64,000 nt of DNA, from positions 22,321 through 86,320 of the IMG/VR virus record IMGVR_UViG_3300023184_009648; one strand, given 5' to 3'. The DNA comes from a virus. Below, in pieces: positions 406 to 57,099 of this stretch; positions within the stretch are counted from its first letter, which is position 1; every line of letters begins with the position of its first letter. Both the position numbers and the translations under genes were made by a program. The notes beneath the pieces were generated by a model. That model saw only the letters and a program-made list of their open reading frames with translations, was not told where the DNA came from and did not search any database.

Positions 406-612
406 ATGTTACCGGGATTCAAACAATGGTTAGAAGAACTACTCTCTAAGGATAGTCCTTCTTCTGCAGGCGATTTGGATGACAGTCAATCCAATTCTGA
501 TCGTGCTTTTGGCCGTAGTGGCGCAAAAAGCAAAAATTTTGCTCCCGGCAAGCCAGAAAATATTACGATCCGCAATCCTGAAAAAATGTTTGGCAAGAAG
601 GAAAAGTCATGA
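406..612 (+). CDS. hypothetical protein with capsid-targeting-like N-terminus
   Basis: MLPGFKQWLEE; CTAAATA 4 nt upstream. Confidence 0.6.
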   Translation: MLPGFKQWLEELLSKDSPSSAGDLDDSQSNSDRAFGRSGAKSKNFAPGKPENITIRNPEKMFGKKEKS

Positions 613-920
613 ATTTTCAACGCTTGTGGGAAAGCATAGAATTAGCAAAAGAAAAAAAGCAGCCTGTGGAAAATAAGGCTACATCAGCTATCCGCACGGG
701 AATTGGGATTGATGAAAATTTTTGGGACAATTTTCTTCTTCTTCTAAATAATGCTGAAGGTTTAGGAGAGCTTCTTGATGTTGATGCAGATGTAATTGGA
801 ACATGGGCAAATAAAATCAATAATGCTCGCAAACAAGTTTCTGATTCTGATGATCAAGAAGATGTAAAGAAAAATAAAAAACTTATAAAAACAAGCATTC
901 CTGAGGGTGAACCAAAATGA
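609..920 (+). CDS. hypothetical protein
   Basis: ATGA-coupled to both neighbours; MNFQRLWESIE. Confidence 0.65.
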   Translation: MNFQRLWESIELAKEKKQPVENKATSAIRTGIGIDENFWDNFLLLLNNAEGLGELLDVDADVIGTWANKINNARKQVSDSDDQEDVKKNKKLIKTSIPEGEPK

Positions 921-1273
921 AAAGTTTTTCTCAATGGAAAATGCAAGAAGCACAAAACCCTGTTTGGGAAAATCTTAAATCAACTAATTTAAATGTTAAC
1001 GATAGTGTTCGCCAATTAGCTTTGCCTAAACTGGAAAAAATTCAAGAAGAATTAGTGCGTCGATTAGTTGGTCAAAAAATTCAAAGTTACCGTGATGTGC
1101 CACCAAATTTACGAGATATGTATGCCCAAACACTTGTCTCTTGTATTTTAGAAATTTTTTACCCCAACACAACAGCCCCTACAGATATAGAAATACCAAA
1201 ATTAAAACGATCAACTGAACCTGTTTATTTACCACAAGATCAGTTTGTAACACCAGCAGCATCAAAGGGATAA
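917..1273 (+). CDS. hypothetical protein with capsid-targeting-like N-terminus
   Basis: MKSFSQWKMQE; GAGGGTG RBS. Confidence 0.7.
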   Translation: MKSFSQWKMQEAQNPVWENLKSTNLNVNDSVRQLALPKLEKIQEELVRRLVGQKIQSYRDVPPNLRDMYAQTLVSCILEIFYPNTTAPTDIEIPKLKRSTEPVYLPQDQFVTPAASKG

Positions 1274-1274
1274 A

Positions 1275-1715
1275 ATGAAAAGTTTTTATGAATTTTGTCG
1301 TTTATTAGAGAACAATCAAATTGCATCAGCTGGTGATATGCCAGCAGAAAAAGCTGTTGGTGCTGGTCAAATGCCTCCTGTTTCTGGCGAGCCTCAACCT
1401 CAAATGCAGCAAGATGAGCCAGAACAAATTCAACCTAAAATACCAACTGCTCCGGGTGGACCTGAAGAAGCCAAAACTCTTGAAGATGTTGGAAATGCTA
1501 TTCGTAAAGTTTTAGAAGAGAAGCTTTTTCCTGCACTTGATAAAAAACAAATTAGCAAAGAAGTTGCAATGGAATTGTACAATACAATTGCATCTGAAAT
1601 ATCTAATCGTTATGGCATAACCGCATCTAAGACAAATCAAGGAATGAATAATGCCATGGCTACTAATTCAGAACCTCGTTCTCCTTCTCCAAAGCAACCT
1701 ACGGCACAAGGCTAA
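1275..1715 (+). CDS. hypothetical Pro/Gln-rich protein with capsid-targeting-like N-terminus
   Basis: MKSFYEFCRLLE; TAATG coupling to the next gene. Confidence 0.7.
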   Translation: MKSFYEFCRLLENNQIASAGDMPAEKAVGAGQMPPVSGEPQPQMQQDEPEQIQPKIPTAPGGPEEAKTLEDVGNAIRKVLEEKLFPALDKKQISKEVAMELYNTIASEISNRYGITASKTNQGMNNAMATNSEPRSPSPKQPTAQG

Positions 1716-2599
1716 TGAAACATCGTGGTAGAATTCAAAGCGATGAAGAAAAACAAAGACGGATTGAGCAAGCATTAAAAAATCGCCGCCATCCGCCACA
1801 ACCTATCAAATTGCCTAATCCAGAACCACGCCGTGTTGTTAGTCGCATTCATCGTTCTGGAACAATAATAAAATCTAAACCTTTAATAATTAGACCATTT
1901 TCTCCATTTACTGCAACATTCAAGCACTCAGGTGATCTTGGAGATTTATGGTATAGTTTGCCAGTAATACGGTATCTTGGAGGTGGATCACTTTATTTAA
2001 ATCCTGATGGTCTTAAAACTAGAAAACCTGACGGTACAATAAGCGGTCTTAATCCAGAACTTATAAAGATGAGCATTCCATTATTAGAATTGCAACATTA
2101 CATAAAAAAAGTAGAAAAATGGAATCAGCATCAAAAAGTATCTCTTGATATTGATATATTTAGAAAAATATTTCCTCCAAAGCCAAGCTTGTGTGAAAAA
2201 ATTTTAGCTTCTTTTTCTGTTCCTTTTTCTGAGATACAGAAACCTTGGATTGAATGTGATTCTAAAAATATAGCCAAGGTTGTTTTTAACCGATCTTTTA
2301 GATACAGAAATGAAAATACAAAATACAAAGAAATACTTGCAGACAATAAAGAAAGTTCTGTTTTTATAGGTCTTCCAGAAGAGCATCAAGACTTTGAAAG
2401 CAAATTTGGAAAAATTGATTATTATAAAATTAAAGATTTTCTTGAAATGGCACAAATTATAAACGGAGCAGAATTATTTGTAGGAAACCAAAGTAGTTCA
2501 TTAGCTTTAGCAATAGCTATGCACAAACCATTCATTCAAGAAGCTTACATCCATGGAGCAGATTGCAAAATTGAAATTTCTAATGCAAAATACATGTAA
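1715..2599 (+). CDS. GT9/heptosyltransferase-like glycosyltransferase
   Basis: HSGDLGD and FLEMAQIINGAELFVGNQSS motifs. Confidence 0.7.
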   Translation: MKHRGRIQSDEEKQRRIEQALKNRRHPPQPIKLPNPEPRRVVSRIHRSGTIIKSKPLIIRPFSPFTATFKHSGDLGDLWYSLPVIRYLGGGSLYLNPDGLKTRKPDGTISGLNPELIKMSIPLLELQHYIKKVEKWNQHQKVSLDIDIFRKIFPPKPSLCEKILASFSVPFSEIQKPWIECDSKNIAKVVFNRSFRYRNENTKYKEILADNKESSVFIGLPEEHQDFESKFGKIDYYKIKDFLEMAQIINGAELFVGNQSSSLALAIAMHKPFIQEAYIHGADCKIEISNAKYM

Positions 2600-3563: not shown

Positions 3564-3608
3564 ATGTAAAAGAGTCATATATAATTTATAAAAACATAAA
3601 GAGGTAAT

Positions 3609-4049: not shown

Positions 4050-4986
4050 CAAAATTGGGTTACTTCCATTCACAAGAGAAGAAGTTCTTTCTGTTCAAGA
4101 TGTAGAACAGAGATCCGGTTGGGAAATTACTGCTTTTGATCTTCCTGAGTCTTGGAACTACACTCAAGGAGAAGGTGTTGTTGTAGCCGTACTAGACACT
4201 GGGGCTGATCTTAATCATCAAGACCTTGCCCCCAACCTTCTTCAAGGTAAAAACTTCGTTGATCCAAGCAAACCTCCCCAAGATGATAATGGCCATGGCA
4301 GTCATGTATCAGGAATTATTTGTGCCTTAAATAACAATATTGGGATTGTAGGCGTTGCACCCAAAACTAAAGTAATGCCAGTGAAAGTTCTTGATTCATT
4401 GGGAAATGGTAATTTAGATGTAGTAGCAGAAGGAATTAGATGGGCAACAAATCAAGGAGTAGATTTTATTACTATGTCGCTTGGTTCGCCATCACAAATA
4501 CCTGTTGTAGAAGATGCAATAAAATACGCAACTGATCGTGGAGTTATTATTTGGTGTGCCGCAGGAAATGCTGGTAAAACTCGTCAAATATTTTATCCAG
4601 CAGCTTATCCGCAATGCATTGGTATTGGAGCAATTGACGAAAGCTTTAATCGTGCAGACTTTAGCTGTACTGGTCCAGATCTTGATTTTGTAGCACCGGG
4701 TGTAAAGATTTTGAGCACCGTACCAGACAATTGGTATGCAGTACTTTCTGGTACAAGCATGGCAAATCCTTTTGCCGTAGGTATTGGATGCCTTCTATTA
4801 TCATATAAGCGTAAAACAGGAATGAATTTACGACTCAATAATGCCCAAGATTACATTGAAGCATTGAAGCAATATACTATTCCAACCACAAACCCTAATT
4901 TTGGAAATCAACATTTTTTTGAAGGATTTGGAATCATTGACGCTCGTAAAATGAATGAATGGATTGCGTCACACAACAATAGTTAA
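4015..4986 (+). CDS. S8 subtilisin-family serine protease, intracellular (ISP)-type
   Basis: Catalytic motifs VAVLDTG, HGSHVSG and GTSMANP; AAGN oxyanion motif; LLPF N-terminal extension; no signal peptide. Confidence 0.92.
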   Translation: MSLSINLSALINKIGLLPFTREEVLSVQDVEQRSGWEITAFDLPESWNYTQGEGVVVAVLDTGADLNHQDLAPNLLQGKNFVDPSKPPQDDNGHGSHVSGIICALNNNIGIVGVAPKTKVMPVKVLDSLGNGNLDVVAEGIRWATNQGVDFITMSLGSPSQIPVVEDAIKYATDRGVIIWCAAGNAGKTRQIFYPAAYPQCIGIGAIDESFNRADFSCTGPDLDFVAPGVKILSTVPDNWYAVLSGTSMANPFAVGIGCLLLSYKRKTGMNLRLNNAQDYIEALKQYTIPTTNPNFGNQHFFEGFGIIDARKMNEWIASHNNS

Positions 4987-5594
4987 TCTTTTTCTGGTAA
5001 TTTAATTGGTGGAAGTTCATAAAGCATAAACTCTTGTTCTTGACTCAAACTTCCATCTTTTCCTTGGCCTTTTTTTCCATCTTCTTTGCCATATCCCTCA
5101 GGATTTTGCTGTCCTTCACCTTTTGCTTTGCCTTGAGAACCACCAACCTTTTTACCTTTAGCTAAAGATTGCATGGCTTGTTGAACTTTTTCATGTGTTT
5201 CACGAGTATAAGGAAGTCTATAAACTCGTGGTTCATCAGAATTTTTTTTAGATGAAAAAGGAGCTAGCCAAGAATTGGGTTTAGTTTCAACAATTTCATT
5301 TTCATCATCAAGAGCGTTGGCCCAAATAAGAATATAACCCTTTTTATTGAAATCACTGTTAGATGGCTCATGAACAAAAGCCCAAAGCATGCCAAATTTT
5401 TTTGGCAAAGGCGATTCAGCAGCCCACCCAGATATATTTCCTAAACTGTTCCAGATTACAAAATTAAAATAAAGAACAAGAGGAACTGCTATAACTTTAA
5501 TTAACCAATGTCCTTTGCCAAGAATAATAAACCAAAGCAATACTGCACAAATAACTACAAAGGTGAATGGTATGCCAATTAAAGATAAATCCAT
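4983..5594 (-). CDS. membrane protein (two N-terminal TM helices, soluble C-domain), third gene of the motor-like operon
   Basis: Two hydrophobic segments within residues 1-55; 2 nt from the upstream gene. Confidence 0.7.
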   Translation of the reverse strand: MDLSLIGIPFTFVVICAVLLWFIILGKGHWLIKVIAVPLVLYFNFVIWNSLGNISGWAAESPLPKKFGMLWAFVHEPSNSDFNKKGYILIWANALDDENEIVETKPNSWLAPFSSKKNSDEPRVYRLPYTRETHEKVQQAMQSLAKGKKVGGSQGKAKGEGQQNPEGYGKEDGKKGQGKDGSLSQEQEFMLYELPPIKLPEKD

Positions 5595-5596
5595 GT

Positions 5597-6214
5597 TTAG
5601 CTTCCTTTTTGCTTAAGAGCCTGCGTTAATGATTTTGGCAGTGTATTATGACTCACCATATCACCAGATTTGTTTAGTTTAAAACGCAATAAAGTTTTTT
5701 CGTCTCCTGATTTTTCAAGTATCAATTCATTTACAATCAATGTTTTTACTTGTGGATTTAACTTTTCGACCATAACACTAACTTTACAAGGTTTTGGATC
5801 ATTTTTACGATAGGCGTGAGCATTTATGCAATATTCACCTTCTTCAAAGCCACGAAGTGTGACGATCTCTCTGTTATATGGATATCTAATTTGTCCATTT
5901 GGGGTTTCTACAAAATCATTTCTATGACCAAGATCATCTCGATCAAGATGCATGAGTCCATCTTCTCTACGACGGAAACAAACAAGTGCACCTCTTGGAT
6001 CTTCTACATAAAGATCAATATCATCATCCATTTCGTCGTTCCAAGACAAAGTTATCATATATTCTGCTTTGATTTGCACAGAAGATTTTTTATTTTCTTT
6101 GTCTACATTTATCATCGCAAAAGCCAAAACAAACATAGCTGTAAAAGCAAGAAGCATATTAAAAAGAAGATCAAGAAAAGAAGTGTTGCAGCTATAAAGC
6201 CTTTTCATCTGCAT
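5597..6214 (-). CDS. MotB/ExbD-like single-TM protein with YfaP/DUF2135-like periplasmic domain
   Basis: TM SFLDLLFNMLLAFTAMFVLAFAMI with intramembrane Asp; ITLSW...DIDLYVEDP...LDRDD...GEY motif; start at 6214 or 6208. Confidence 0.65.
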   Translation of the reverse strand: MQMKRLYSCNTSFLDLLFNMLLAFTAMFVLAFAMINVDKENKKSSVQIKAEYMITLSWNDEMDDDIDLYVEDPRGALVCFRRREDGLMHLDRDDLGHRNDFVETPNGQIRYPYNREIVTLRGFEEGEYCINAHAYRKNDPKPCKVSVMVEKLNPQVKTLIVNELILEKSGDEKTLLRFKLNKSGDMVSHNTLPKSLTQALKQKGS

Positions 6215-7215: not shown

Positions 7216-7218
7216 GCT

Positions 7219-13112: not shown

Positions 13113-14165
13113 TTAACCATCAGAACGAACAGCTTGATACAAGTTATTGGTATCAATAGAAGTGAAAAGACCATCACTAAATTTATGGTTAGGGTCAATT
13201 CCCATCATATTTCTAACGCTGTTCCACCAAGCATCCTCAGAAGATTCATCCTTCTTTTCAGCTTTCTTCTCAGCCTTTTTCTTAGCATGCATTAACTTGA
13301 AATCTTTGGCATCAATTTTGCCATCTTTATTTATGTCTAGTTTATGTTGACCACCCTTGAGCATCTTCTTCTTAGACATCATGGGTTTAGAAACTTTGGC
13401 ACTTTCTTCATCGCCGTCTTCTTCTTCATGATCTTCGTGATCGTCATGATCTTCGTGATCGTCATGATCTTCATGATCGTCATGATCTTCATGATCGTCA
13501 TGATCTTCATGATCTTCATGATCTTCATGATCTTCGTGATCGTCATGATCGTCATGATCTTTTTCTTCCTCTTCATGATCTTCGGCATCTTCAGGAGTAT
13601 TAGGACCTTCGTCTGAATACATTTTCTTTTTGGACTTCATGCAAGAAGATTTTTCTTTCTTATCTTCTTTTTTATCCTTATCTTTTTCTTTTTCTTTTTT
13701 GTCTTTAGACTTTTCTGATTCATCATCTTCATCAGACCATCCATCTTCTCCATCCATCTTCTTTTTAGACATCATTCCTTTGCCACACATCATGCATTTT
13801 TTTGCCCAAGCTTTAGCTTTTACACCACACAGCTTGCCACATGATGAGCAAAGACCAGCTTTATCTTTTTTAGATTTTTCTTCGTCATGATCTTCATGAT
13901 CTTCATGATCTTCGTCTTCGTCATTATCGACATCAACATCAACATCAATTTCTTCGTCATCTTTTTTGGGTTCGTCCTTCTTTGAAGAAGGATCAACGAT
14001 TTCGCCATCACCTGTGGGCATCTTTTTCTTTTTCTTCTTATCATGTTTAGCTTCTTCAAAACCAAACTGAGTAACAATGCCTAAATTATTAGGGCTGTAT
14101 AAGCCTAAATTAAAACTGGAAAGTGCAGATTCATTCAATGACTTCCAATGTTTATATGACAACAT
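13113..14165 (-). CDS. low-complexity acidic His-rich protein with Cys cluster and EF-hand-like loop; probable head/internal protein
   Basis: Start MLSYKHWKSLNE after AAGGGA RBS; (DHE/DHD)n; CSSC..C...CMMC; DINKDGKIDAKDF. Confidence 0.75.
   Translation of the reverse strand: MLSYKHWKSLNESALSSFNLGLYSPNNLGIVTQFGFEEAKHDKKKKKKMPTGDGEIVDPSSKKDEPKKDDEEIDVDVDVDNDEDEDHEDHEDHDEEKSKKDKAGLCSSCGKLCGVKAKAWAKKCMMCGKGMMSKKKMDGEDGWSDEDDESEKSKDKKEKEKDKDKKEDKKEKSSCMKSKKKMYSDEGPNTPEDAEDHEEEEKDHDDHDDHEDHEDHEDHEDHDDHEDHDDHEDHDDHEDHDDHEDHEEEDGDEESAKVSKPMMSKKKMLKGGQHKLDINKDGKIDAKDFKLMHAKKKAEKKAEKKDESSEDAWWNSVRNMMGIDPNHKFSDGLFTSIDTNNLYQAVRSDG
13423..13560 (-). repeat. 9-bp tandem coding repeat encoding DHE/DHD
   Basis: About 15 copies of TC(T/G)TC(A/G)TGA on the + strand; shorter copy at about 13881-13915. 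Confidence 0.9.
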
Positions 14166-17094: not shown

Positions 17095-17125
17095 AAAGGC
17101 GTGTCTTTAAAAGACACGCCCTTCT
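17093..17125. terminator. intrinsic terminator between convergent genes
   Basis: GGCGTGTCTT-TAA-AAGACACGCC with an A-tract on the left. Confidence 0.75.
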
Positions 17126-17142
17126 AAAAAGTCAAAATAAAC

Positions 17143-18377: not shown

Positions 18378-18602
18378 ATGAAAACATTCGTTCAATGGGC
18401 TGAAACAGTAAAGAAAGAACTTCCAGTTTATGTGCAAGACGAGGCGACTCGTCGTGCCGGTATTGCATATTGGGCTTACCCTGATGCTTATATTCGCAAT
18501 CAATATCCCGATTCTTGGTTCACTCCTTATGCTGCTGATGCTGCTTTCAAGCTAGGCTATGCAAAAGGTGGTCCAAAAGCTGGTAAGGAAATTGCGGGTT
18601 AA
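18378..18602 (+). CDS. aromatic-rich small protein, paralog 1 (capsid-targeting-like N-terminus)
   Basis: MKTFVQWAE...GIAYWAYPDAYIR; GAGG RBS. Confidence 0.75.
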   Translation: MKTFVQWAETVKKELPVYVQDEATRRAGIAYWAYPDAYIRNQYPDSWFTPYAADAAFKLGYAKGGPKAGKEIAG

Positions 18603-18910
18603 TGAAAACTTTTTTACAATGGGCTGAAATTAAACATCGGGAACTTCCTGTCTATCAGACAGATGAAGGCGGTGGCAGCACAGCACGCAACGGCATAGCT
18701 TATTGGGCTTACCCAGACGGCTATATTCGTTCACACTATCCTGATGCTTACTTTATGAGTCGTGCTCCTGACGCTCTTTGGAAAATGTCTCCCGGACCTC
18801 CAATTACGCCTCATAAACATCATGTTCATCACATGACGCCACCTGATTATGCGATTGGACCTGATGGACAGGTAAGAAAAGAAAAAGAAGTCGAATACGA
18901 AACTGATTGA
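18602..18910 (+). CDS. aromatic-rich small protein, paralog 2
   Basis: MKTFLQWAE...GIAYWAYPDGYIR; TAATG coupling. Confidence 0.75.
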   Translation: MKTFLQWAEIKHRELPVYQTDEGGGSTARNGIAYWAYPDGYIRSHYPDAYFMSRAPDALWKMSPGPPITPHKHHVHHMTPPDYAIGPDGQVRKEKEVEYETD

Positions 18911-20431: not shown

Positions 20432-20906
20432 TAGGGTCTCTATATTGAACCCAATCGGAAAAAGATTTTCTGAAATGGTACAAAATTTTACGCTTAAAAA
20501 ATGGCCAAGATTCTTTAAAGCTAGAGTGTAATTTTAAATTTTCTACTTCATCAATGTTAACCCAAACACTATCACTATGTTCGTCAGAAATACTTACTTT
20601 AAAAGGTTTATCAATAGCATAAAAAAAAGTAGTAAAACGAAATCTTCCATCAATATCTTCATAATCACCAAAACGATAACCTTCAAAATTTCCACATTCT
20701 TCAATAGCTTCTCGTTTGGCAGCATCTATAGTACTTTCGCCTTGTTCAACTTTTCCACCGGGTATGCACCAGCTTTCAAAGTGATTTCCTTTAGTGGCTC
20801 GTTTCAATAAAAGAATTTTTTGGCCATCAGTGAAAAGAATGCCAGCACCTGATTTGCCCCAATATTTTCTTCCATCTCTACCAATCCGATGATACTGTTC
20901 GTTCAT
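20418..20906 (-). CDS. Nudix hydrolase
   Basis: Nudix box GGKVEQGESTIDAAKREAIEECG. Confidence 0.92.
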   Translation of the reverse strand: MNEQYHRIGRDGRKYWGKSGAGILFTDGQKILLLKRATKGNHFESWCIPGGKVEQGESTIDAAKREAIEECGNFEGYRFGDYEDIDGRFRFTTFFYAIDKPFKVSISDEHSDSVWVNIDEVENLKLHSSFKESWPFFKRKILYHFRKSFSDWVQYRDPTILP

Positions 20907-21508
20907 CGCTTTGGACCTCTCTTCAACGGAACCGGTTTAAGCTTTTCTATTTGTCGATCTGGCTGATCTTTAAAATAATGCATTGTATTAGTTAATTCAC
21001 GGCTAATTTCAGATGCAGAAGTGCCTGTGCATTTTGTGGAGTTTTGTAATGAAACTGTTTTACGATCACGGTTGTAAAATCCTTTACTCAAAACAAAACA
21101 TCTAAGTTCAGGATGCCAAGTTACAACGCCTACCCATTCACCATCATCCCAATTACGAGATGAAACAATTAGGCGTAAAGGTTTTTCACTATAAACATGT
21201 TTTGTGTGATAACCTTGATTTTTCATTGCAGCACTAATATAGCCAAGACAAATGCGAGCAAAACCTTCAAGGGCTTCGTCGGCTTTTGTACGATAATTGA
21301 CCTCAACACTGTAGCGTGAGGTTTCAACAGCTTCTACTAGGTTTTTTTGACGATATTCTTGAAAAGTCTTCATAGAACCACGAAGAGTGGCTCCAAAATA
21401 TTCTTTGCAAATTTGAACAAAATCTTCTTGTGAGACTTCTTTAGGCATAAAGTCTGCAAGACTCTGTTCCTTGCGCCAATTAAAAAAATCTTTCATCTTT
21501 GTCTCCAT
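20903..21508 (-). CDS. hypothetical protein with two capsid-targeting-like motifs
   Basis: MKDFFNWRKE (residue 5) and MKTFQEYRQKNLVE (residue 46). Confidence 0.7.
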   Translation of the reverse strand: METKMKDFFNWRKEQSLADFMPKEVSQEDFVQICKEYFGATLRGSMKTFQEYRQKNLVEAVETSRYSVEVNYRTKADEALEGFARICLGYISAAMKNQGYHTKHVYSEKPLRLIVSSRNWDDGEWVGVVTWHPELRCFVLSKGFYNRDRKTVSLQNSTKCTGTSASEISRELTNTMHYFKDQPDRQIEKLKPVPLKRGPKR

Positions 21509-21522: not shown

Positions 21523-22167
21523 ATGAAGATTTCTAATTTTAAACAATGGCTTCAAGAGCAAGAAAGATCTGGTGATTTTTTTGAAACCACCATTGGAACT
21601 GAAGAAGTTGAAGCTGGACAAATTGAAAGTATTTATTCTAAAGCCAAAATTTCAGTAATGATGGTTCGTCTTTATGATCAAATGACTGGTCAAAAACTCT
21701 TGACAAATATATCAACAATTGCCAATTTATCTGGAAGTGCTTATGGCGTTTATGTTAGCAGCGAAAATAAAAAAGCAATTGGTTCAGATGTCATAAATCA
21801 AATTAAACTTATTTATCCTAATGACCCAGCCTTAGGTCAAAAACTACAAAAACTGCCGAAGAAAACAATTGCTCAATACATTCCTCAGATTGATCCCAAA
21901 AAAATCATTCCTTCAGATGTGATTCATGTTGATGTTTTAAAGCACATGAGAGAATTAGGTGATACACCAGCAGCTATTGTTGAAATTGCATCAACAATTG
22001 TTCATGAAGCAACACATGTTAAAGAATTTGAAGAAATTGGTAGTACCCGAGATGGTCCGGGAACTGCTGTTGATGTGGCAGAAAAAAGTTTTAAAAATTG
22101 GGCCAAACAAAATTGGCCAATGTTAAGTCAAAAATTTAATTTTCAAGGACCATTTCCTTTTAAATAA
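21523..22167 (+). CDS. HExxH zincin-like metallopeptidase with capsid-targeting-like N-terminus
   Basis: IASTIVHEATHVKE; MKISNFKQWLQEQE. Confidence 0.65.
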   Translation: MKISNFKQWLQEQERSGDFFETTIGTEEVEAGQIESIYSKAKISVMMVRLYDQMTGQKLLTNISTIANLSGSAYGVYVSSENKKAIGSDVINQIKLIYPNDPALGQKLQKLPKKTIAQYIPQIDPKKIIPSDVIHVDVLKHMRELGDTPAAIVEIASTIVHEATHVKEFEEIGSTRDGPGTAVDVAEKSFKNWAKQNWPMLSQKFNFQGPFPFK

Positions 22168-23127: not shown

Positions 23128-25938
23128 ATGCAAACATCATTCAGAGAATTTCTATTTCAAGCCATTGAAAAAGATGGAGCTTATAAGTTTTTAAAGCCAA
23201 CGATTCGTAAAATCGATGAAATGGCTTTATACGGGGATGTTTCTCGTATGCCAATCAATATCGACAAAGATGATATTGATTTTTTAAAACAATTTCCACA
23301 TCAGTATTGGCCCGAGGCGATGCATCAAAGATATCAATATCTTTTTCATGCAATTAAAAAACAACATGAAACTCGTAAAGCAATGGGGTGGGATGAATTA
23401 GAAGATGCTATTATTGATGCTATGAAAACTGGCGATTATTCTAAGTTAGAAACCCTTGAAGAGCCTCTTGCTTTAGACAAAAAAGAAATAGAAAAAATTA
23501 AAGAATTCAAACCAGAGTATACCGCCACTCTTGAAGACGATGAAATAGAAAAAATCGCAGACAAAATTGCATGGGAACATTTAAAAAAATCTACAGATTT
23601 TGTTGATGACCCAGAAACTCTTGAGTTTTCTTTTAAAGAAAAACTACTTCATCCAACAACTGGTAAGCCTATTAAAACTCGTACTCAACGGCGTTTTACA
23701 AAAACAGCTAAGCCATTCTTAAATCGTCTTTATCATAAAATTGAGCGCACCGCTGGATTGCCTCATATATCGGGTTCCGGTCTTGAAGGAGAAATTGCAA
23801 AGTATGGCTATGATCTTCGTAACCCGATTGAAGATCCAGAAGGAGCTCATGCTACCACTGGATTTGCTATTCCTAAACTTGGAGCAATTAAAGATCGTAT
23901 GCGTGCTTTTATGAATTTAAACGCACACAGCATGTTTGGAAAAATTGATGATCCTGATGTTGTTTGGAAGCCTGTTAATGCAGAAGATAGTGAAACTGCT
24001 GAACAATATCTTAATGTTTATCGCAAAGAATTTGAAGCTCAGCTTAAGAAAAACAAAAATTTGACAATGGATCAGGTTCAATCTCAGGCTCGGAAGCTAT
24101 CAAAGGAAAAATTAGCTGAAAAATTTCCTAATGGAACACTTCGTGGCCCTGCATATCCGGGCGTCGAAGGTGCTGAAAATGGTTTTCCAGTAACATTTAA
24201 GCGCAAAGAAAATGGTGAAATTCAAGTAATAAATCCACCACTCTATATGCCTTTCAAAAAAATGCCTAATGGCGAACTTGCTCCTTATCCTGAGGTAAAA
24301 TCCGCCCATTTCTACCGACCTCTTAGAGACAGTGAATATGTGCGAGATGATCAAGGAAACAAAGTTAAAGATGAAAACGGTAATTTTAAAACAACAGTAA
24401 ACCCTGAAAAATTAACTGGTCACAAAAAAGACCATGTTAAAATTGATGATGATGAATTTCAATATGGAATCGATATTCAAAAAGATGCTGCGATTGATCC
24501 TAATCATAACACTCAAAAGAAAGATTTTTTAGTTCGTGGAACATCCGAATACGAAGAAGCTTTTAGTAAAGTTTTTGCAAATCAATCTGAAGTTGATGTT
24601 GTAAATGGAAGAATGGTTGATGCTCCTCACAGTGGTCTCTATCGAGATATTATACAAGGAATTTTAAATTGCGTTCGCAACAAATGTGGAGACATGACTG
24701 ATTTTGAAGCTGCAATTATGATGCAGAATATATCACAAATTCATGGTTTGATCTATATGTCTATGCTTGAAAGTCTAAATCTAAAAAAACAAGCTAGAAG
24801 CTTAAGTGATAAAAATAATCGTGTAGAATGGGCTTTCAAAAAGGCTTCATCTTATGCTCAAAAAGATCATGGTGGAGGCACACGCCGTCTTCGTGCTCTT
24901 AGCGATGCTGCTCGTGCTACACAAACTCGTCGTCACACAACAAGGCGTCGTTTCGACACTTCGGGAATGAAATTCCCTTATCGAATTGAAAACTACAATA
25001 AGTTTCTTCAAGATCTTGCTGACTTGCGTGAGCGTGCTGCAAAGGCTGATGCTGAAGCAAAACAAGCTGTAGCAGCTGTGTCTCGTCGTCGTTCTGCATC
25101 AGAAGGAATTGGAAATTTACTCACAACATCTTTGCAAGACCGTGCTAAAGTAGCTGATGACCTTGTATTGTTATTAGCTGTTATTCACCAAGAGTTTGGC
25201 GAAGGCACAACTGATTCTCAAAAATACGCAGAAGACACAATTAAGTCTTTCATTGAACAAGGTATGGACTCTATTCAACTTGTAACAGCTTTTCAAAATT
25301 TAGATGTTGTTAAAAAGGCAAAAGAAGAACTCAAGGTTGAACCAGATGTTGGCTCTACCGAAGAACCTAAAGTCAGTACTGATTCTGATATGCAAAGAGA
25401 AATTAGAGATGCTAACAACATCTTTGGCAACGATTTCAATATTGATTTGCAAAGGGTTTCTGGAAACAAACAACATCCTGAAATTTTATCAAAATACAAA
25501 GCAACCATCTCCGGAGCTCTTAGTCGATATGTAAGCACAGAATTAAAACAAAAAATTAAAGGTGAACATCAATGGCTTAGCATGCCCGAAGGTGCTGAAG
25601 ATCTAGACAAAGTTCTTAAAGCCGTTCAAAAGGCAATTGATGAACGCATGGCTATGCCAGAATTACCTAGAGGTGCAGAAACAGGAGGACAAGCTCGTGT
25701 TCGCATAGGAACAGATTCCGGCAAAAACTGGTTTCAAAATCTTCAATCACAAACACCAGAAGGCTATTTTCATGTAGCACATGATCCAATTTTTCATAAA
25801 AGGGCTCCAGTAGAAAAATTAAAAGATTTGAAAAATTATTTTAATCAAAACGCAGATAAATTTCACCCTGAAGACCATGCATCAGCATTGAATGCATTAG
25901 ATGCAGCAATCAGAGAAAAAAAGGTGACTAATGGCTAA
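23128..25938 (+). CDS. large unknown protein (936 aa) with capsid-targeting-like N-terminus
   Basis: MQTSFREFLFQAIE; no family recognised. Confidence 0.75.
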   Translation: MQTSFREFLFQAIEKDGAYKFLKPTIRKIDEMALYGDVSRMPINIDKDDIDFLKQFPHQYWPEAMHQRYQYLFHAIKKQHETRKAMGWDELEDAIIDAMKTGDYSKLETLEEPLALDKKEIEKIKEFKPEYTATLEDDEIEKIADKIAWEHLKKSTDFVDDPETLEFSFKEKLLHPTTGKPIKTRTQRRFTKTAKPFLNRLYHKIERTAGLPHISGSGLEGEIAKYGYDLRNPIEDPEGAHATTGFAIPKLGAIKDRMRAFMNLNAHSMFGKIDDPDVVWKPVNAEDSETAEQYLNVYRKEFEAQLKKNKNLTMDQVQSQARKLSKEKLAEKFPNGTLRGPAYPGVEGAENGFPVTFKRKENGEIQVINPPLYMPFKKMPNGELAPYPEVKSAHFYRPLRDSEYVRDDQGNKVKDENGNFKTTVNPEKLTGHKKDHVKIDDDEFQYGIDIQKDAAIDPNHNTQKKDFLVRGTSEYEEAFSKVFANQSEVDVVNGRMVDAPHSGLYRDIIQGILNCVRNKCGDMTDFEAAIMMQNISQIHGLIYMSMLESLNLKKQARSLSDKNNRVEWAFKKASSYAQKDHGGGTRRLRALSDAARATQTRRHTTRRRFDTSGMKFPYRIENYNKFLQDLADLRERAAKADAEAKQAVAAVSRRRSASEGIGNLLTTSLQDRAKVADDLVLLLAVIHQEFGEGTTDSQKYAEDTIKSFIEQGMDSIQLVTAFQNLDVVKKAKEELKVEPDVGSTEEPKVSTDSDMQREIRDANNIFGNDFNIDLQRVSGNKQHPEILSKYKATISGALSRYVSTELKQKIKGEHQWLSMPEGAEDLDKVLKAVQKAIDERMAMPELPRGAETGGQARVRIGTDSGKNWFQNLQSQTPEGYFHVAHDPIFHKRAPVEKLKDLKNYFNQNADKFHPEDHASALNALDAAIREKKVTNG

Positions 25939-27508: not shown

Positions 27509-28423
27509 ATGCGTATCCCAGAATTTAAGAGTTGGTTTGTTGAGCAAGAAACATTTACTTTTATTGAGGTCATCCGTGAGGTTCTTGAATTAAGAAATCT
27601 TACTGAGAGCATTCAAGCTCTTGAAGATGAAATTTCTAAGGCAACTGGCGTTCAAGCAAACTGGGTAAATATTTTAGGAGCTAAAGCCATGCGTAGTGGC
27701 AGATTTTCGCCAAGAGATTTGCGTGGCGAACATGCTGCATTCGAAGCTCTTACTAGAATTCTTATGGATCTTCAACCGGGTAAAAATTTAAAAAATACAG
27801 TTGATGAAATTGGTGATCGTTTAGCTGATAATCCAGAGCGAAAAAACAAAGAAATCATTGCTCTTTTAACTTCAGTTGCAGGAAAAAGAGGCATTGATGT
27901 TCGCAAGCGCATTACAAGCAAAGATGATGAAGGTGCTCCTATAGGGGTTGGATCTATTGATAGCGAAGAGGGAATGGGAGCTATGCACACGGCTCTTAGT
28001 GGCCGAAGAGGCGGAAGCGTAACTGGTGCTGATTTGAGCGAATTTGAGGAAATGATGATCAATGCTCTTCGCCAAATGCAACAGGGAGCAACTCGTCCTA
28101 CCCAAGAACGCCTTGAGCAAGCTATTAAAATTGTTCCAGATCGTCTCAAAGGCATGACGGATACTGAGCTTGCTGCTCATCACAATTTAAGCGATTCAAG
28201 AGTTGAACAAATTATGCAAGACATTTTTGCTGCTATGGAAAAGGCAGCCCAACAACTTGGCGAGCCATGGATTAGTCAAGTCCGTCGTCAGTTGGCAATG
28301 CGTCGAAGGCCTCGTGCTGTTGTAGAGCCTACTTCAGCTAGTTCTTCTATTGGTTCGTCAACAGCTACCGCTCATCCTGCACCTTCACCGTTGATTCACG
28401 GGTCTGCTGAAACAGGACTGTAA
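27509..28423 (+). CDS. ECF-sigma-like HTH protein with capsid-targeting-like N-terminus
   Basis: Sigma2-like EHAAFEAL...LLTSVAGKRGIDVRKR; sigma4-like RLKGMTDTELAAHHNLSDSRVEQIM. Confidence 0.55.
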   Translation: MRIPEFKSWFVEQETFTFIEVIREVLELRNLTESIQALEDEISKATGVQANWVNILGAKAMRSGRFSPRDLRGEHAAFEALTRILMDLQPGKNLKNTVDEIGDRLADNPERKNKEIIALLTSVAGKRGIDVRKRITSKDDEGAPIGVGSIDSEEGMGAMHTALSGRRGGSVTGADLSEFEEMMINALRQMQQGATRPTQERLEQAIKIVPDRLKGMTDTELAAHHNLSDSRVEQIMQDIFAAMEKAAQQLGEPWISQVRRQLAMRRRPRAVVEPTSASSSIGSSTATAHPAPSPLIHGSAETGL

Positions 28424-28993: not shown

Positions 28994-29308
28994 ATGCTAT
29001 CATTCTATGAATTAAACCAAAAAATGATTAAAGAAGCTGGTCCGGGTATGGTAGCTGGTCCGGGCATGGCGGCTGGTATGGCTGGTGCTCCACAACAATC
29101 TTTGGCAGCCCAACCACCTGATCCTGCTATAATAAGTCTTCAAAAGGCTCTAACACAAATTAAAGATCCTCAAACAAAAAGTTCTTTATCAAATTTGGTT
29201 AATACAGCACTAAGTCAAAAAACATTAACAGGAAAAGTTCCACCTACAGCACAACAACTTAAAGCTGCTCAAACGATGCAAGCATACCAACCAACAAAAA
29301 CGACTTAA
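28994..29308 (+). CDS. low-complexity protein with capsid-targeting-like N-terminus
   Basis: MLSFYELNQKMIKEA. Confidence 0.65.
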   Translation: MLSFYELNQKMIKEAGPGMVAGPGMAAGMAGAPQQSLAAQPPDPAIISLQKALTQIKDPQTKSSLSNLVNTALSQKTLTGKVPPTAQQLKAAQTMQAYQPTKTT

Positions 29309-35780: not shown

Positions 35781-36326
35781 TCAAGTTTCGCTGACTATGT
35801 TATGTTTTTTATACAAGTTTTTTGTTTTAGTAACTTGAAATTGATGAGACATTTGAATTTGAACATGATCCAAATATTTGCGTTTTAGTTCATTATAGTT
35901 GCGTGCAGTTCTGTATAACTGTCGAAAATGATTTAGTACACAAGTAGTCATATAATTAAAAGCTTTGCCCTTTTTAGGATCAAAACGATCAATCTTTTCA
36001 AAACAAATCATTACACCTTCTTGAATGGCATCATCTTGATCAATTAAATTAAATTTTGCATATCTAACGATATTTTCAGACAATGTATAAAATGCAATTG
36101 CAAGATTTTCTTGAGCTTCAGAATATTCAACAGAAATAGAAGTAAAAGTTTTTTCTATAATAGCCCAACCTGAAGGTTGTTGATATTTGCCTCGATTTAA
36201 AGTCCTTTGTTGAGCTCCACGAATATCATCCATGAGTAGTAAATATTTTACCCGTTCTTTTTTGGCTTGCTGAAATCTAACTATAAGCTTTTCAAAAGTT
36301 TTATTGTTCAAATATTCTGTGGCCAT
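35781..36326 (-). CDS. late-transcription sigma factor (T4 gp55-like)
   Basis: YLNNK N-terminus; DAIQEG...IDRFDPKK..AFNYMT..VLNHF; lacks region 4. Confidence 0.85.
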   Translation of the reverse strand: MATEYLNNKTFEKLIVRFQQAKKERVKYLLLMDDIRGAQQRTLNRGKYQQPSGWAIIEKTFTSISVEYSEAQENLAIAFYTLSENIVRYAKFNLIDQDDAIQEGVMICFEKIDRFDPKKGKAFNYMTTCVLNHFRQLYRTARNYNELKRKYLDHVQIQMSHQFQVTKTKNLYKKHNIVSET

Positions 36327-46007: not shown

Positions 46008-46604
46008 CTAAAATGCATCCAAACCACCTGTATTACCGCCAAGAGGTGGTGCTGCCAAATCTTGACCTGTACTACCTGTAGGAGGCGTTGCTGTAGGCGT
46101 TGCATCAATATTTTGAGGTTGTTCTGGTGCTTTGCTTGATGCAACATTATTGCTTGAAGCTTCAGGTGAAGATTTCTGAATAGAATTTTGTGCCTTGTTA
46201 TTTTTTTCTGGGCCACCTACACCTTTATTATCATCAGAATTACTTTGAGACTTATCAGTTGGAGTCAATTTACTAATTGGAACTCCTAAATCTTCTACAA
46301 GTTTTTCTATCGTAGTAGAAACAGCCTGTATTGTTCCGGGTAAATCACTTTTCTTATCAATTGCCATCATTAAAGCTACAGCCGTTTTTTGAAGGGTAAC
46401 TAAATGAACTTTATCTTCTTTGGGCCAACTACTGTGTAGCACCCTGCGAATTTGATTTACAATTTGTTGAGAATATTGAGTTAAATCACGAGCTCCCATA
46501 TTTTGGGCGTCATCTCGCAATTCATGAAGAGCAGTAAGTATATCTCCTACTTTTTGAGCTAAGTAGGCCGATTCCTCTTGTAGCAAAAAATGTTTAAATC
46601 TCAT
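46008..46604 (-). CDS. hypothetical protein with capsid-targeting-like N-terminus
   Basis: MRFKHFLLQEE; ATAAATA 4 nt upstream. Confidence 0.7.
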   Translation of the reverse strand: MRFKHFLLQEESAYLAQKVGDILTALHELRDDAQNMGARDLTQYSQQIVNQIRRVLHSSWPKEDKVHLVTLQKTAVALMMAIDKKSDLPGTIQAVSTTIEKLVEDLGVPISKLTPTDKSQSNSDDNKGVGGPEKNNKAQNSIQKSSPEASSNNVASSKAPEQPQNIDATPTATPPTGSTGQDLAAPPLGGNTGGLDAF

Positions 46605-48350: not shown

Positions 48351-48959
48351 TCAAGATGTACAATAAAGCATGTAAAGACAAGTGTTTTTGTGTATCATTT
48401 GAACATTTATCTTAAAGCCACAAAGACTAAATTTTTCCATAATTTCGAAACATTTTTTGTATTCATCGGCTTTATTTGCAAATAAACTCCAAACATGAAG
48501 CTCAATAGACCAATTTTTAACTTTTTTGATACATTCATCTGGTGTATTAAGAATAAACTCATACTCTCGACCTTCAATATCAACTTTCATAAAATCAATA
48601 TGTTCAAGATTAAAATCATTTAAAATACGCTCTAAATTGTAAGACTGAGAACCCAAATCTGTCATAACACAACCATAGATGGGATAAATTTTTTTGTTTT
48701 TAGTTGTATTGATTTTTAAATATTCATAAGTATCAGAGTCTGCTTCAATCGCTATGATTTTAGTCGCACCTTGACTTGCGGCATATTGACTAAAAACACC
48801 TATACTTGCTCCGCAATCAACTACTATATCGCCTTTCTTTATTTTCAACCCAAAGCGATCATACTCTTTGTCTTTCCATATTTCTTGGTAGTAGCGACCA
48901 TATTGGTCTGCAACCAATTGTCCCCATTCAGGATTAAGTTTAAAATCTGAAAATTTCAT
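48351..48959 (-). CDS. FkbM-family SAM methyltransferase
   Basis: VVDCGASIG and MKVDIEG motifs. Confidence 0.85.
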   Translation of the reverse strand: MKFSDFKLNPEWGQLVADQYGRYYQEIWKDKEYDRFGLKIKKGDIVVDCGASIGVFSQYAASQGATKIIAIEADSDTYEYLKINTTKNKKIYPIYGCVMTDLGSQSYNLERILNDFNLEHIDFMKVDIEGREYEFILNTPDECIKKVKNWSIELHVWSLFANKADEYKKCFEIMEKFSLCGFKINVQMIHKNTCLYMLYCTS

Positions 48960-55668: not shown

Positions 55669-55989
55669 ATGATGACTACATTTAAACAATTTTTTATGGA
55701 AGCCGATGCACCACCTCCACCACCAGCAGGCGGTGGTGCTCCACCTACATCCCCAGCACCTCCACCCCTTCCAGCAGGCGGTGGTGCTCCACCTATGCCA
55801 ATGCCTAGTGGCGGTGGTTTAGGCGGTGGTTTAGGCGGTGGTCTTGGAGGCCCTCCTCCTAGTGGTGGAGCAGGTGGTCCCCAATCTGCTGCAAAAAAAT
55901 TGAAGGCCTATAATGTTTGGGATGTTTGGAATAATCTTTTAAATAAAGGTGATAAAGAAACTGCCCAAAATACCGAGGAACAAAAATAG
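55669..55989 (+). CDS. Pro/Gly-rich protein with capsid-targeting-like N-terminus
   Basis: MMTTFKQFFMEAD; duplicated PAGGGAPP; ATAAATA immediately upstream. Confidence 0.65.
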   Translation: MMTTFKQFFMEADAPPPPPAGGGAPPTSPAPPPLPAGGGAPPMPMPSGGGLGGGLGGGLGGPPPSGGAGGPQSAAKKLKAYNVWDVWNNLLNKGDKETAQNTEEQK

Positions 55990-56000
55990 ACGAGATACAT

Positions 56001-56450
56001 ATGAGCGATAAGTCGCCTCCCCTGTCCGCCGAACAAATAGAATTTGCCTGCCGCATGATGCGACAATGGCTAGAAGTGTGTGAAGAAAATGGTCGCAGTC
56101 TCAATGCTTCCAGCATCGATCATTCATCTTTACTTCGTAGATTGTTATCAGGTAAAAAAGCACTTCCCTATCCTCCACCCATGAGATTTGGCTATCCTGC
56201 TTGGGAACTTGTCGAAGCAGAAGAAATTGAAATTCAAGAGTTGATAGAAAATGAACACGGCATTCAAATAGATCAACATCAAGGATATTCATGGATAAAT
56301 TTTGATAAAAAAATAATTCAATATGATCGTCTTAATTTGCAATACCAATATTTAGAACGAGAAGTTATTCCTGATCCCTCAGTAATAAAAGAAGGTCTTG
56401 ACCCTAAAGAATTTAAATACATATCTAAAGTTTTGAAAAAATTATCTTAA
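56001..56450 (+). CDS. hypothetical protein
   Basis: 149-aa ORF. Confidence 0.6.
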   Translation: MSDKSPPLSAEQIEFACRMMRQWLEVCEENGRSLNASSIDHSSLLRRLLSGKKALPYPPPMRFGYPAWELVEAEEIEIQELIENEHGIQIDQHQGYSWINFDKKIIQYDRLNLQYQYLEREVIPDPSVIKEGLDPKEFKYISKVLKKLS

Positions 56451-56464
56451 TCATAAATATTTGC

Positions 56465-56650
56465 ATGATAAGTTTTAAAGAATGGCTCAAATCTATTGAA
56501 GAGGGTTTTGGCCCTTACATTGGACCTTGTATAGACACTGATAGATATCAAGTTCAAGGTGCTTGCAGTAATTACAACACGGAAGTTCAGAATAAACGCA
56601 TAAAACAAGGTTATGTTGCCCATAAAAAGGTAAAACAAAACAAAAAATGA
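56465..56650 (+). CDS. small protein with capsid-targeting-like N-terminus
   Basis: MISFKEWLKSIEE; ATAAATA 5 nt upstream. Confidence 0.65.
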   Translation: MISFKEWLKSIEEGFGPYIGPCIDTDRYQVQGACSNYNTEVQNKRIKQGYVAHKKVKQNKK

Positions 56651-57099
56651 AAAGTTTCAGAGATTTTATCGCCGAACAAGAGTATGCGAATCAACCTCAA
56701 TCTTCGCAACAATCAAGCTTTGCACCATCTGCTCCTATTGCTCCAATAATGCAATCTAATTTGCAAGGTCAAAAGAAAAAATGGAGTGCTTCAAAAACCG
56801 ATATAATTAAATTTTGGAGAAATTTACAAACAACAAGTCCGATTCAAGCAAAGCCAATTTTATATAATCACAAAGGTTCCACCTACGGCGAAGATGGAAT
56901 TCGAATCACTGGAAGCCCTCAGTTTATTACATCTGTGATTTCTAAGCTGAAGGATTTTTTAGGTTACGAAGGTCCCAACACTAAATTGGCCATTTCTTAT
57001 AGGGAAACTGAATCGCCCAGTAAATCTGCTGTTGGTCAAAACAAAACATCTTTTGTATTTTACATTGCAGTTAAGGAACGAGGCAAACAGTCTCAGTAA
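56647..57099 (+). CDS. protein with capsid-targeting-like N-terminus
   Basis: MKSFRDFIAEQE; ATGA coupling. Confidence 0.7.
   Translation: MKSFRDFIAEQEYANQPQSSQQSSFAPSAPIAPIMQSNLQGQKKKWSASKTDIIKFWRNLQTTSPIQAKPILYNHKGSTYGEDGIRITGSPQFITSVISKLKDFLGYEGPNTKLAISYRETESPSKSAVGQNKTSFVFYIAVKERGKQSQ

Follow-up and report, generated by a model that had tools for sequence, protein, structure and literature searches.

We found that about one gene in six on an 86-kb contig from a huge freshwater myophage of the T4 superfamily (CheckV ~20% complete) begins with the same short peptide, and that this peptide is probably, with odds of roughly three in four, a T4-type capsid targeting sequence (CTS). The observations behind this reading are the motif itself, T4-type partners encoded beside it, conservation at the peptide level, modularity and a shared promoter box. 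Since the same peptide stands on this many genes, dozens of otherwise unrelated proteins are probably packed into the capsid, and we regard the arrangement as a known system in strongly expanded form. The window, the whole stretch of DNA analysed here, comprises 64,000 nt of this contig.

Starts of the 113 genes called on the contig were assigned blind to the motif, and internal protein positions served as background. The pattern M-x(1-4)-F-x-x-[FWY]-x(0-6)-E matched 16 N-termini of these genes as compared with 0.58 expected. At p <= 1e-3, a scoring matrix trained on LR756511.1 alone, an independent complete relative of 595 kb, picked out 14 N-termini across the whole contig where 0.11 were expected; at p <= 0.01 it picked out 19 where 1.1 were expected, so that the enrichment over background on which the original prediction depended is present by both measures. 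Every N-terminus listed in that prediction was found in place. Its count of about 16 tagged proteins held in part: 11 sites in the window were strong (406, 917, 1275, 18378, 18602, 21523, 23128, 27509, 55669, 56465 and 56647), and about five or six of those listed were weak, with 609, 14165(-), 21496(-), 28994 and 46604(-) individually non-significant. For 609, 14165 and 46604, LR756511.1 has positional or orthologous partners with a similar start. Further tagged genes occur on the contig upstream of the window, for a contig total of 14-20 in 86 kb.

In LR756511.1, about 40-50 tagged genes are scattered from 30 kb to 590 kb, and the system is therefore genome-wide, as had been proposed. Across 80 related loci, 100 of 1196 genes (~8%) were tagged versus 7 expected. 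The tag is thus enriched clade-wide, and far less so under the same pipeline in T4 (8 observed versus 4.3 expected), KVP40 (16 versus 5.8) and P-RSM1 (6 versus 2.2); phiKZ showed no enrichment (5 versus 4.2). Among the contig genes checked, the adaptor, two tail tube genes, sheath and hub carried no tag, nor did SbcCD, the Dda helicase, RNR or the PyrG-like protein, in agreement with the claim that replication, RNR/PyrG and tail genes lack it. The tagged genes of the window, together with one doubtful case and an untagged sigma gene, are as follows.

406..612 (+): tagged ORFan, 68 aa, MLPGFKQWLEE; score 13.6, p < 5e-5; TAAATA 4 nt before ATG
609..920 (+): weakly tagged ORFan, 103 aa, MNFQRLWESIE; p = 0.02; LR756511.1 orthologue starts MTFLEAWESVRKLKE
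917..1273 (+): tagged ORFan, 118 aa, MKSFSQWKMQE; p = 3e-4
1275..1715 (+): tagged ORFan, 146 aa, MKSFYEFCRLLE; detected by the matrix
13113..14165 (-): tagged low-complexity protein, 350 aa, MLSYKHWKSLNE; p = 0.011
18378..18602 (+): tagged small protein, 74 aa, MKTFVQWAE; paralogue of the 18602 gene
18602..18910 (+): tagged small protein, 102 aa, MKTFLQWAE; best matrix score, 18.6
20903..21496 (-): protein of 197 aa with two tandem tags, MKDFFNWRKE at residue 1 and MKTFQEYRQKNLVE at residue 42
21523..22167 (+): tagged protein, 214 aa, MKISNFKQWLQE; score 16.9; TATATA 4 nt before ATG
23128..25938 (+): tagged protein, 936 aa, MQTSFREFLFQAIE; p = 1e-3
27509..28423 (+): tagged protein, 304 aa, MRIPEFKSWFVE, possible C-terminal HTH; detected by the matrix
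28994..29308 (+): weakly tagged protein, 104 aa, MLSFYELNQKMIKE, then a Gly/Pro/Met-rich linker; p = 0.07
35781..36326 (-): untagged Sigma70_r2 protein in the gp55-like late sigma position; PF04542, 1e-6
46008..46604 (-): weakly tagged protein, 198 aa, MRFKHFLLQE; p = 0.024; TAAATA 4 nt before ATG; LR756511.1 orthologue starts MEFKKFLITE
48351..48959 (-): SAM-methyltransferase, 202 aa, with a doubtful tag, MKFSDFKLNPE; p = 0.022; outside the original list
55669..55989 (+): tagged protein, 106 aa, MMTTFKQFFME, then a Pro/Gly linker; score 14.0; TAAATA 2 nt before ATG
56465..56650 (+): tagged protein, 61 aa, MISFKEWLKSIEE; score 17.4; TAAATA 5 nt before ATG
56647..57099 (+): tagged basic protein, 150 aa, MKSFRDFIAE; score 16.1

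Comparison of the protein bodies bore out that they are unrelated, except for the 18378/18602 pair, and beyond the tag the tagged proteins showed no similarity to T4 IPI. Site 21373 is an internal Met (residue 42) of the 21496 ORF, and these two sites therefore represent one ORF with two tandem tags; its orthologue in LR756511.1 begins MLNFKDYVEE, and the alignment starts at residue 49. The tagged cargo includes a WrbA/FMN-reductase-type flavoprotein; the 936-aa protein matched no known domain in the profile search. As to the functions originally proposed for the cargo, the sigma-like reading of the 304-aa protein survives as a weak lead (sub-threshold Sigma70_r4 match, E = 0.059; atlas leads 0.79), and the supposed peptidase did not hold up, as family searches of the tagged proteins matched none of them to any peptidase family.

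The tag follows the consensus M-[KL]-[TS]-F-x-[EQD]-[WYF]-[LIV]-x(1-4)-E. Among 137 distinct tags, the F occupies residue 3-6 (residue 4 in 87 cases), the first Glu lies 5-8 residues past it, at +5, +6 or +8, and the P3 position before this Glu is hydrophobic in ~85%. The contig also carries MKTFVEYLAE and MKSFNEYLAE, and the tag at 56647 is identical in 7 of 10 residues to the T4 IPII/IPIII tag. The T4 record matches the starts from which the prediction had argued (ipI, MKTFKEFTSTTTPVSTITE, with MKTFKEF; ipII and ipIII with MKTYQEF). In the IPIII tag, MKTYQEFIAE (10.1101/2021.01.19.427310), targeting needs residues 4 and 7 (Y4, F7) and processing needs residues 8 and 10 (PMC9026906), and these coincide with the conserved positions of the contig tag.

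We followed this conservation in 77 homologues of the WrbA-like protein (50-86% identity), chosen independently of the motif. Position 4 was F in 67, I in 6 and Y in 3; position 7 was Y in 71 and F in 6; position 8 was L in 70 and I in 7; E10 was invariant (77/77), and the linker after the tag was variable. Flavodoxin-type relatives below 45% identity had no tag and began directly at strand beta-1. The AlphaFold model of the WrbA-like protein places the tag in a helix (residues 4-11), followed by a loop and then the flavodoxin fold. Two cargo families keep the tag down to 26-50% identity, the 304-aa family to 26%, and homologues of the 936-aa protein keep a recognisable [ST]FR[ED]F core, within an [ST]FR[ED]F[LF] start, down to 29%. 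These sequences mark the tag as a module that can be attached to the N-terminus of different proteins and is selected at the protein level.

By family searches, the contig encodes the head partners expected of a T4-type phage: a gp21-like Peptidase_S77 prohead protease (L001:5051-5728; PF03420, 3.6e-24; phrog_207, 5.5e-48), which also matched the T4 gp21 structure (PDB 5jbl, 1.7e-16), a Gp23 capsid protein (3.2e-87) and a Portal_T4 (gp20) protein (2.2e-72). The N-terminal region of the capsid protein contains FLNE, ELE, LLE, LLE and MNE sites upstream of the position aligned with mature gp23*. Between the protease and capsid genes, in the gp22 (scaffold) position, lies a gene for a 300-aa acidic protein, for which no family match was found.

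A late-type promoter box links the tagged genes to structural genes. TA[ATG]ATA occurred just before the ATG in 24/52 tagged versus 47/1005 other genes of LR756511.1 (p = 1e-16), in 5/19 versus 3/94 on this contig, and in 61/100 versus 167/1096 in the 80 related loci, confirming the boxes that had been noted ahead of many tagged genes. This box also stands ahead of the genes for the protease, the scaffold-position protein and the tail tube, and ~40% of tagged genes are without a recognisable box nearby. The untagged Sigma70_r2 protein (35781..36326) is a candidate reader of these boxes.

From these observations we infer the following route into the head. The tag would form a short N-terminal amphipathic helix with aromatics three apart (F4 and W/Y/F7), closed by a hydrophobic-x-Glu site. 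Tagged proteins, presumably made late, would bind through this helix to the scaffolding core of the assembling prohead, where the gp21-like S77 protease would cut the tag after Glu and so free the mature cargo inside the head; the cargo would then reside in the virion and later exit with the DNA by injection. Under this model a label that T4 places on 3-4 cargo proteins would have spread, in a freshwater clade with ~0.5-Mb genomes, to dozens of proteins, mostly orphans, the proposed cargo including the flavoprotein, the 936-aa protein, the low-complexity charged protein, which looks abundant, and many proteins of 60-150 aa.

The best-surviving alternative, which we nevertheless consider unlikely, accepts entry into the prohead but takes most of the cargo to belong to the internal architecture of the head and not to be effectors for injection. 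Such proteins could assist the scaffold, condense DNA or act as counter-ions, or form an inner-body-like mass, and would be degraded or left behind. The 350-aa tagged protein (13113..14165) would suit such a role, with its polyacidic Asp/His-rich and its Lys-rich runs, its Cys motifs and an LR756511.1 positional analogue (MISYKQWKILSEN) of the same composition; it is also a candidate abundant internal head protein because its gene ranks first in the contig for codon score per length. Likewise, a protein of 584 aa encoded in the gp67/68 position starts MKRKLISFDAFKKIEE, and T4 core proteins are themselves gp21 substrates (PMC9026906). However, most tagged proteins are small, diverse orphans, 12 of 15 having no orthologue in the 595-kb relative, a pattern known from the anti-defence internal proteins of T-even phages, which evolve fast (PMC3012670; 10.1101/2022.04.14.488369), and not from conserved architecture. 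In addition, one cargo is a complete redox enzyme.

A less probable explanation is that the shared start is a protein-level signal with a role outside the capsid, such as docking to a phage chaperone or assembly, import into a compartment or timed degradation. T4 gp61.1 starts MKTFKEFIKE, the same tag, and we know of no report of its presence in the T4 head; the motif by itself thus does not prove packaging, and the contig holds 20% of the genome. Against such a role, the tag coincides at the mapped positions with the sole functionally mapped N-terminal signal of this head lineage, the contig encodes the cognate S77 protease, hydrophobic-x-Glu closes nearly every tag, and the promoter box is common to tagged and head/tail genes.

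It is more improbable still that the shared start reflects the nucleotide sequence at the 5' end of the coding region, either as a translation signal of leaderless late mRNAs, which the position of the box 4-5 nt before the ATG in many tagged genes would imply, or as a recombination cassette copied from gene to gene. In favour of such an origin, the first codons are AT-rich, and 21 identical bases are common to T4 ipI and 61.1. Codons at the conserved F, E and L follow genome-wide synonymous usage, with L using all six, and this free variation of synonymous codons points instead to selection on the peptide. Furthermore, 77 tagged genes have an SD-like leader and 60 do not, 47 box-proximal LR756511.1 genes fall outside the strict tag pattern (3 of these carry variant tags), and E10 stays invariant among the WrbA-like homologues despite their divergence. 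We rejected a chance pattern or gene-calling artefact as next to impossible, because although the looser pattern of the original prediction expects 2.7 matches by chance, the enrichment was 28- to 120-fold with motif-blind starts and a matrix from another genome, and was repeated in LR756511.1 and the 80 further loci.

Nearly all huge phages have yet to be cultivated, and orphans make up most of their gene content. A head-cargo label readable from sequence would give a location and a timing to dozens of these orphans per genome, marking them as made late, packed and probably delivered first, and would show where to seek new anti-defence and host-takeover factors. It would also suggest that the capsid volume of megaphages carries a large pre-made protein arsenal and that the few T-even examples greatly understate the age and portability of the T4 targeting code, and it bears on the use of this tag to load foreign proteins into phage heads. 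Beyond the CTS reading, we tentatively entertain, at somewhat less than even odds, the idea that the tag is the address label defining the whole injected proteome of this uncultivated clade. If so, dozens of effectors, made in advance and quickly exchanged, would be injected with the DNA, among them a redox flavoenzyme and a putative HTH regulator; a 10-residue code would have stayed interchangeable from T4 to megaphages despite ~30% capsid-protein identity; and virion cargo would be predictable from sequence alone across the T4 superfamily.

Among known systems, the phiKZ-like phages (SPN3US, phiKZ, 201phi2-1) likewise combine giant heads and many proteins with a prohead protease that cuts after Glu (x-x-E). 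The propeptides on their ejection and inner-body proteins, however, are mostly >100 residues, with ~8/50 head proteins processed, and have no short N-terminal consensus (PMC5694885), as compared with tags of 8-14 aa here. In P1 DarB, an N-terminal peptide is sufficient to load a large anti-restriction protein into the capsid (PMC9024508); this signal is 30 residues on one protein, and its description there showed no sequence resemblance to the tag.

The closest likeness is to the T4 CTS. Both are peptides of about 10-19 residues from Met1 on unrelated, poorly conserved bodies. Positions 4 and 7 are aromatic and position 8 is hydrophobic in both, and the Glu at which T4 is cut is a putative cut site here. 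A gp21-type S77 protease is encoded in each case, as are a gp23 shell and a gp20 portal. The late-type boxes ahead of tagged genes here would correspond to the late promoters of T4. T4 internal proteins proper are small and basic (8-20 kDa, hundreds of copies per head), whereas the tagged proteins of the clade, which differ from them in size and charge, span 61-936 aa (median 118) with body pI 4.8-10.3, may be acidic and include a host-type flavoenzyme. The clade also prefers W as the second aromatic, and its Met-to-F spacing and Glu position are looser. The residues that matter in the T4 IPIII tag were identified by experiment, whereas the present system is known from its genes. In T-even and other T4-type phages, polymorphic internal-protein loci encode diverse, fast-turnover proteins that share only the tag and are regarded as probable injected anti-defence factors: IPI counters GmrSD, and growth on strain ECOR17 requires IPIII (PMC3012670; PMC9026906). 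That set is small, with 3 tagged proteins in T4 (4 with gp61.1) as compared with 14-20 in 86 kb here, and with tens scattered over the whole genome in this clade.

All of the tag-like N-termini (about 10 residues, resembling the capsid targeting sequence, CTS, of T4) named in the original prediction were present as stated. Gene calling that was blind to the motif yielded 113 genes on the contig (the whole record; 92% coding), and the pattern M-x(1-4)-F-x-x-[FWY]-x(0-6)-E matched 16 of their N-termini, where its frequency at internal positions of these proteins predicts 0.58, bearing out the proposed enrichment. To avoid circularity, a scoring matrix was built solely from N-termini of LR756511.1, an independent relative, and then run on the contig, where 14 N-termini passed p <= 1e-3, with 0.11 expected, and 19 passed p <= 0.01, with 1.1 expected. 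The 113 genes of the contig include 14-20 that are tagged. The ~16 sites first listed comprise 11 strong ones (406, 917, 1275, 18378, 18602, 21523, 23128, 27509, 55669, 56465 and 56647) and five that are individually weak (609, 14165, 21496, 28994 and 46604); the LR756511.1 partners of 609, 14165 and 46604 begin with a similar start. Since the Met at site 21373 lies inside the 21496 ORF (20903-21496, minus strand), that ORF bears two tandem tags, at residues 1 and 42, and its LR756511.1 orthologue is single-tagged and aligns only from residue 49. Upstream of the window, the contig has additional tagged genes, whose starts include MKTFVEYLAE, MKSFNEYLAE, MKTFGDYVSFRE, MQSFHEWL and MEFTKWLSLQE. 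A tag gain or loss at genome positions 16811-17299 (minus strand) relative to the LR756511.1 homologue was ruled out, as the ORF reaches MEFTKWLSLQE. The tagged genes are short (median 118 aa); as originally claimed, their tag-less bodies are mutually unrelated, except for the 18378/18602 pair, and none of the identified tail, replication and nucleotide-metabolism proteins carries the tag.

The source is a single virus record of 86,320 bp (CheckV completeness ~20%), of which the window comprises bases 22321-86320. A T4-type head module sits directly upstream of the window on the contig, and the identifiable genes were as follows (L001 denotes whole-record coordinates):

L001:1-2523, upstream of the window: gp20 portal, intein-interrupted (Portal_T4 2.2e-72; Intein_splicing 6e-12)
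L001:5051-5728, upstream of the window: gp21-type prohead protease, Peptidase_S77 (PF03420 3.6e-24; T4 gp21 structure 5jbl 1.7e-16)
Upstream of the window: gp23 major capsid protein (PF07068 3.2e-87)
Inside the window: head-tail adaptor, sheath, two tube proteins, baseplate hub, SbcCD, Dda-like helicase, RNR and PyrG-like protein
Inside the window: Sigma70_r2 protein, at the position of a gp55-like late sigma

The closest public genome is that of the uncultured phage LR756511.1 (595,163 bp; capsid protein identity 79%), whose 439-533 kb region is syntenic with the contig. A related capsid protein occurs on 397 IMG/VR contigs, the best 80 of the 397 being 82-90% identical and encoded on contigs of up to 532,729 bp, and the window DNA recurs across lake and freshwater metagenomes of several studies; no RNA data carrying the gene of the 936-aa tagged protein (23128..25938, plus strand) were listed. 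Taken together, the head module, the synteny, the IMG/VR relatives and the freshwater recurrence assign the window to a freshwater clade of huge phages that is common and belongs to the T4 head lineage. The IMG/VR label "provirus" looks doubtful for this record: every gene that could be identified is a phage gene, of a lineage of huge T4-like phages of lytic type, and the end of the contig falls within the portal gene. In that truncated ORF, Intein_splicing (PF14890) covers residues 114-331, before the Portal_T4 domain at 347-719. The RNR large subunit (48976-50619, minus strand) has 547 aa as compared with 1296 aa in LR756511.1 (444162-448055); the N-terminus is common to both, identity over the C-terminal 300 aa is 71%, and the LR756511.1 protein probably contains large insertions, possibly inteins. 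A membrane-protein gene cluster (4983-7749, minus strand) is partially conserved at 491-493 kb of LR756511.1.

Counts of N-termini matching the tag pattern, obtained with one and the same pipeline and compared with chance, in other phages and related loci
T4: 8, 4.3 by chance; the real ones are ipII, ipIII and 61.1, and ipI escapes the pattern
P-RSM1: 6, 2.2 by chance
KVP40: 16, 5.8 expected by chance, vs 0 by a strict DNA pattern, which under-counts tags
phiKZ: 5, 4.2 by chance
LR756511.1: 45-52 of 1057 genes, 7.5 by chance (for the 45)
80 related loci (clade loci with a related capsid protein): 100 of 1196 genes, 7 by chance

These counts, together with those of the contig, identify the tag as a feature of the T4 superfamily that is greatly expanded in the freshwater huge-phage clade. 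The 16 starts of KVP40 (NC_005083.2) include MKQFCNFLAE, MKLFTEFYQE, MLGNFDSFLSE and MKLKTFDEYHKLVE, and several belong to proteins of 200-480 aa, suggesting a moderately expanded tagged set there as well.

The conservation pattern, examined in individual cargo families, shows the tag to be a portable peptide under selection. For the WrbA/FMN-reductase-like cargo (L001:12547-13410, minus strand), metagenomes hold more than 100 homologues, some on contigs of 202-434 kb. Of these, 77 at 50-86% identity begin with the tag; all 77 have E10, and F4, Y7 and L8 are almost as constant, the variable positions being 5, 9 and the linker (13-18). In relatives below 45% identity, the protein begins with the opening beta-strand of the flavodoxin fold. 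An AlphaFold model (mean pLDDT 89) places residues 4-11 in a short helix, followed by a loop and a flavodoxin-type FMN oxidoreductase fold. A more distant group of homologues (P0109, P0112 and P0116; contigs of 113-290 kb) shares a conserved N-terminal extension of another kind, M-N-x-x-(K)-[IV]-RLPFY[LI]EK[KR]AAE, which could be the targeting or cleavage peptide of another lineage. In the 936-aa family, the start [ST]FR[ED]F[LF] is still recognisable at 29% identity, with a Met-to-F offset lengthened to 6-8 residues in the most distant members, and three homologues of the 304-aa protein (27509..28423, plus strand) at 26-36% identity still start with F-K-x-W-L-L-[ED], the N-terminal segment being absent from one homologue. 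Codons at the conserved F, E and L follow genome-wide synonymous usage, and an SD-like leader is present on 77 tagged genes and absent from 60, which indicates that selective constraint acts on the tag peptide rather than on the mRNA or DNA.

The words enriched upstream of genes, (A)TATATA(A) and (C)ATAAATA, are variants of a TA[ATG]ATA box resembling the T4 late box; the exact T4 late promoter TATAAATA was rejected as the enriched form. The predicted linkage of late-type boxes to tagged genes held in all three sets: a box ended 1-12 nt before the ATG (mode 4-5) in 24/52 tagged vs 47/1005 other genes of LR756511.1 (p = 1e-16) and in 5/19 vs 3/94 on the contig (p = 0.003), and lay within 35 nt in 61/100 vs 167/1096 genes of the 80 related loci (p = 1.5e-22). 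This box also stands before the genes for the protease, the protein in the scaffold position (L001:6925-7827), the tail tube and the adaptor, which would fit co-expression of tagged genes with head assembly. At 406, 21523, 46604 (minus strand), 55669, 56465, 15548 (minus strand) and 19952, and across LR756511.1, the box ends 2-5 nt before the ATG, a spacing that would imply late mRNAs with little or no leader. In other genes, the box is 13-34 nt upstream and an SD-like leader is present.

Potential protease sites were also found in the capsid protein, whose first 48 residues contain FLNE, ELE, LLE, LLE and MNE, all before the residue aligned with the mature gp23* start, resembling the T4 propeptide, which is cut several times; in T4, an E-to-D change at P1 blocks cutting. 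A 584-aa protein is a candidate core component. Low complexity, with runs rich in Asp/His and in Lys, marks the 350-aa tagged protein (13113-14165, minus strand), whose codon score per length is the highest; the LR756511.1 protein in the corresponding position (488200-489231) is alike in N-terminus and composition, not in sequence. The 350-aa protein is plausibly an abundant internal head protein. Its runs include DHEDHEDH-type acidic/His and poly-Lys stretches, alongside CxxC-like motifs and a weak EF-hand/dockerin-like match at 272-293.

Pfam and PHROGs, run on nearly all tagged proteins, returned three matches: FMN_red/Flavodoxin_2 on a protein outside the window, a methyltransferase whose tag is doubtful, and DUF6321 below threshold; the peptidase proposed among the cargo was not found in these searches. 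Nor was the proposed sigma-like cargo (27509-28423) established: it matched Sigma70_r4 at E = 0.059, scored 0.79 in the atlas and had five homologues, all distant; the 936-aa protein gave no usable atlas result. An LR756511.1 orthologue is absent for 12/15 tagged genes. Such short genes, mostly without orthologues, recall the internal proteins of T-even phages, which turn over quickly and are known, or suspected, to be injected against host defences (PMC3012670; 10.1101/2022.04.14.488369).

The T4 genome was scanned with a degenerate DNA pattern for MK[ST][FY]xx[FWY]. Two adjacent genes at 65.4-66.4 kb start with MKTYQEFIAE and are taken to be ipII and ipIII by the published IPIII tag (10.1101/2021.01.19.427310). 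The pattern also matched ipI and gp61.1, both ATGAAAACATTTAAAGAATTT (MKTFKEF). The T4 starts given in the original prediction were read from the sequence of ipI and of the two presumed ipII/ipIII genes; the ipI sequence is MKTFKEFTSTTTPVSTITE, then ATLTSE. The gp61.1 gene (NC_000866.4 18966-19130, minus strand) encodes a hypothetical 54-aa protein in the primase cluster, starts MKTFKEFIKE and is identical to ipI over its first 21 bases. We know of no report of gp61.1 in the T4 head, and its tag-like start therefore warns that the motif by itself does not prove packaging.

In the T4 tag, residues 4 and 7 serve targeting, 8 and 10 serve processing, and internal proteins have propeptides of 10-19 residues (PMC9026906). 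For the clade, 137 distinct tags give the consensus M-[KML]-[TSNK]-F-[KRSQ]-[EQD]-[WYF]-[LVIF]-x(1-4)-E, residue P3 ahead of the first Glu being hydrophobic in ~85% of them, and MKSFRDFIAE at 56647 has 7/10 residues in common with the T4 tag. Capsid targeting is the best-supported reading, to which we give a probability of roughly three in four; we infer that the tag is cleaved and that its bearers reside in the virion and are injected. A paper on phage G sets that phage's HK97-lineage capsid protein against the gp23 lineage of T4, and holds no propeptide data. Our literature search found no paper connecting a capsid targeting sequence with huge phages or describing its large-scale use there. 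The underlying concept is old: short tags for targeting, a diversity of internal proteins, and giant phages that package many proteins have long been known.
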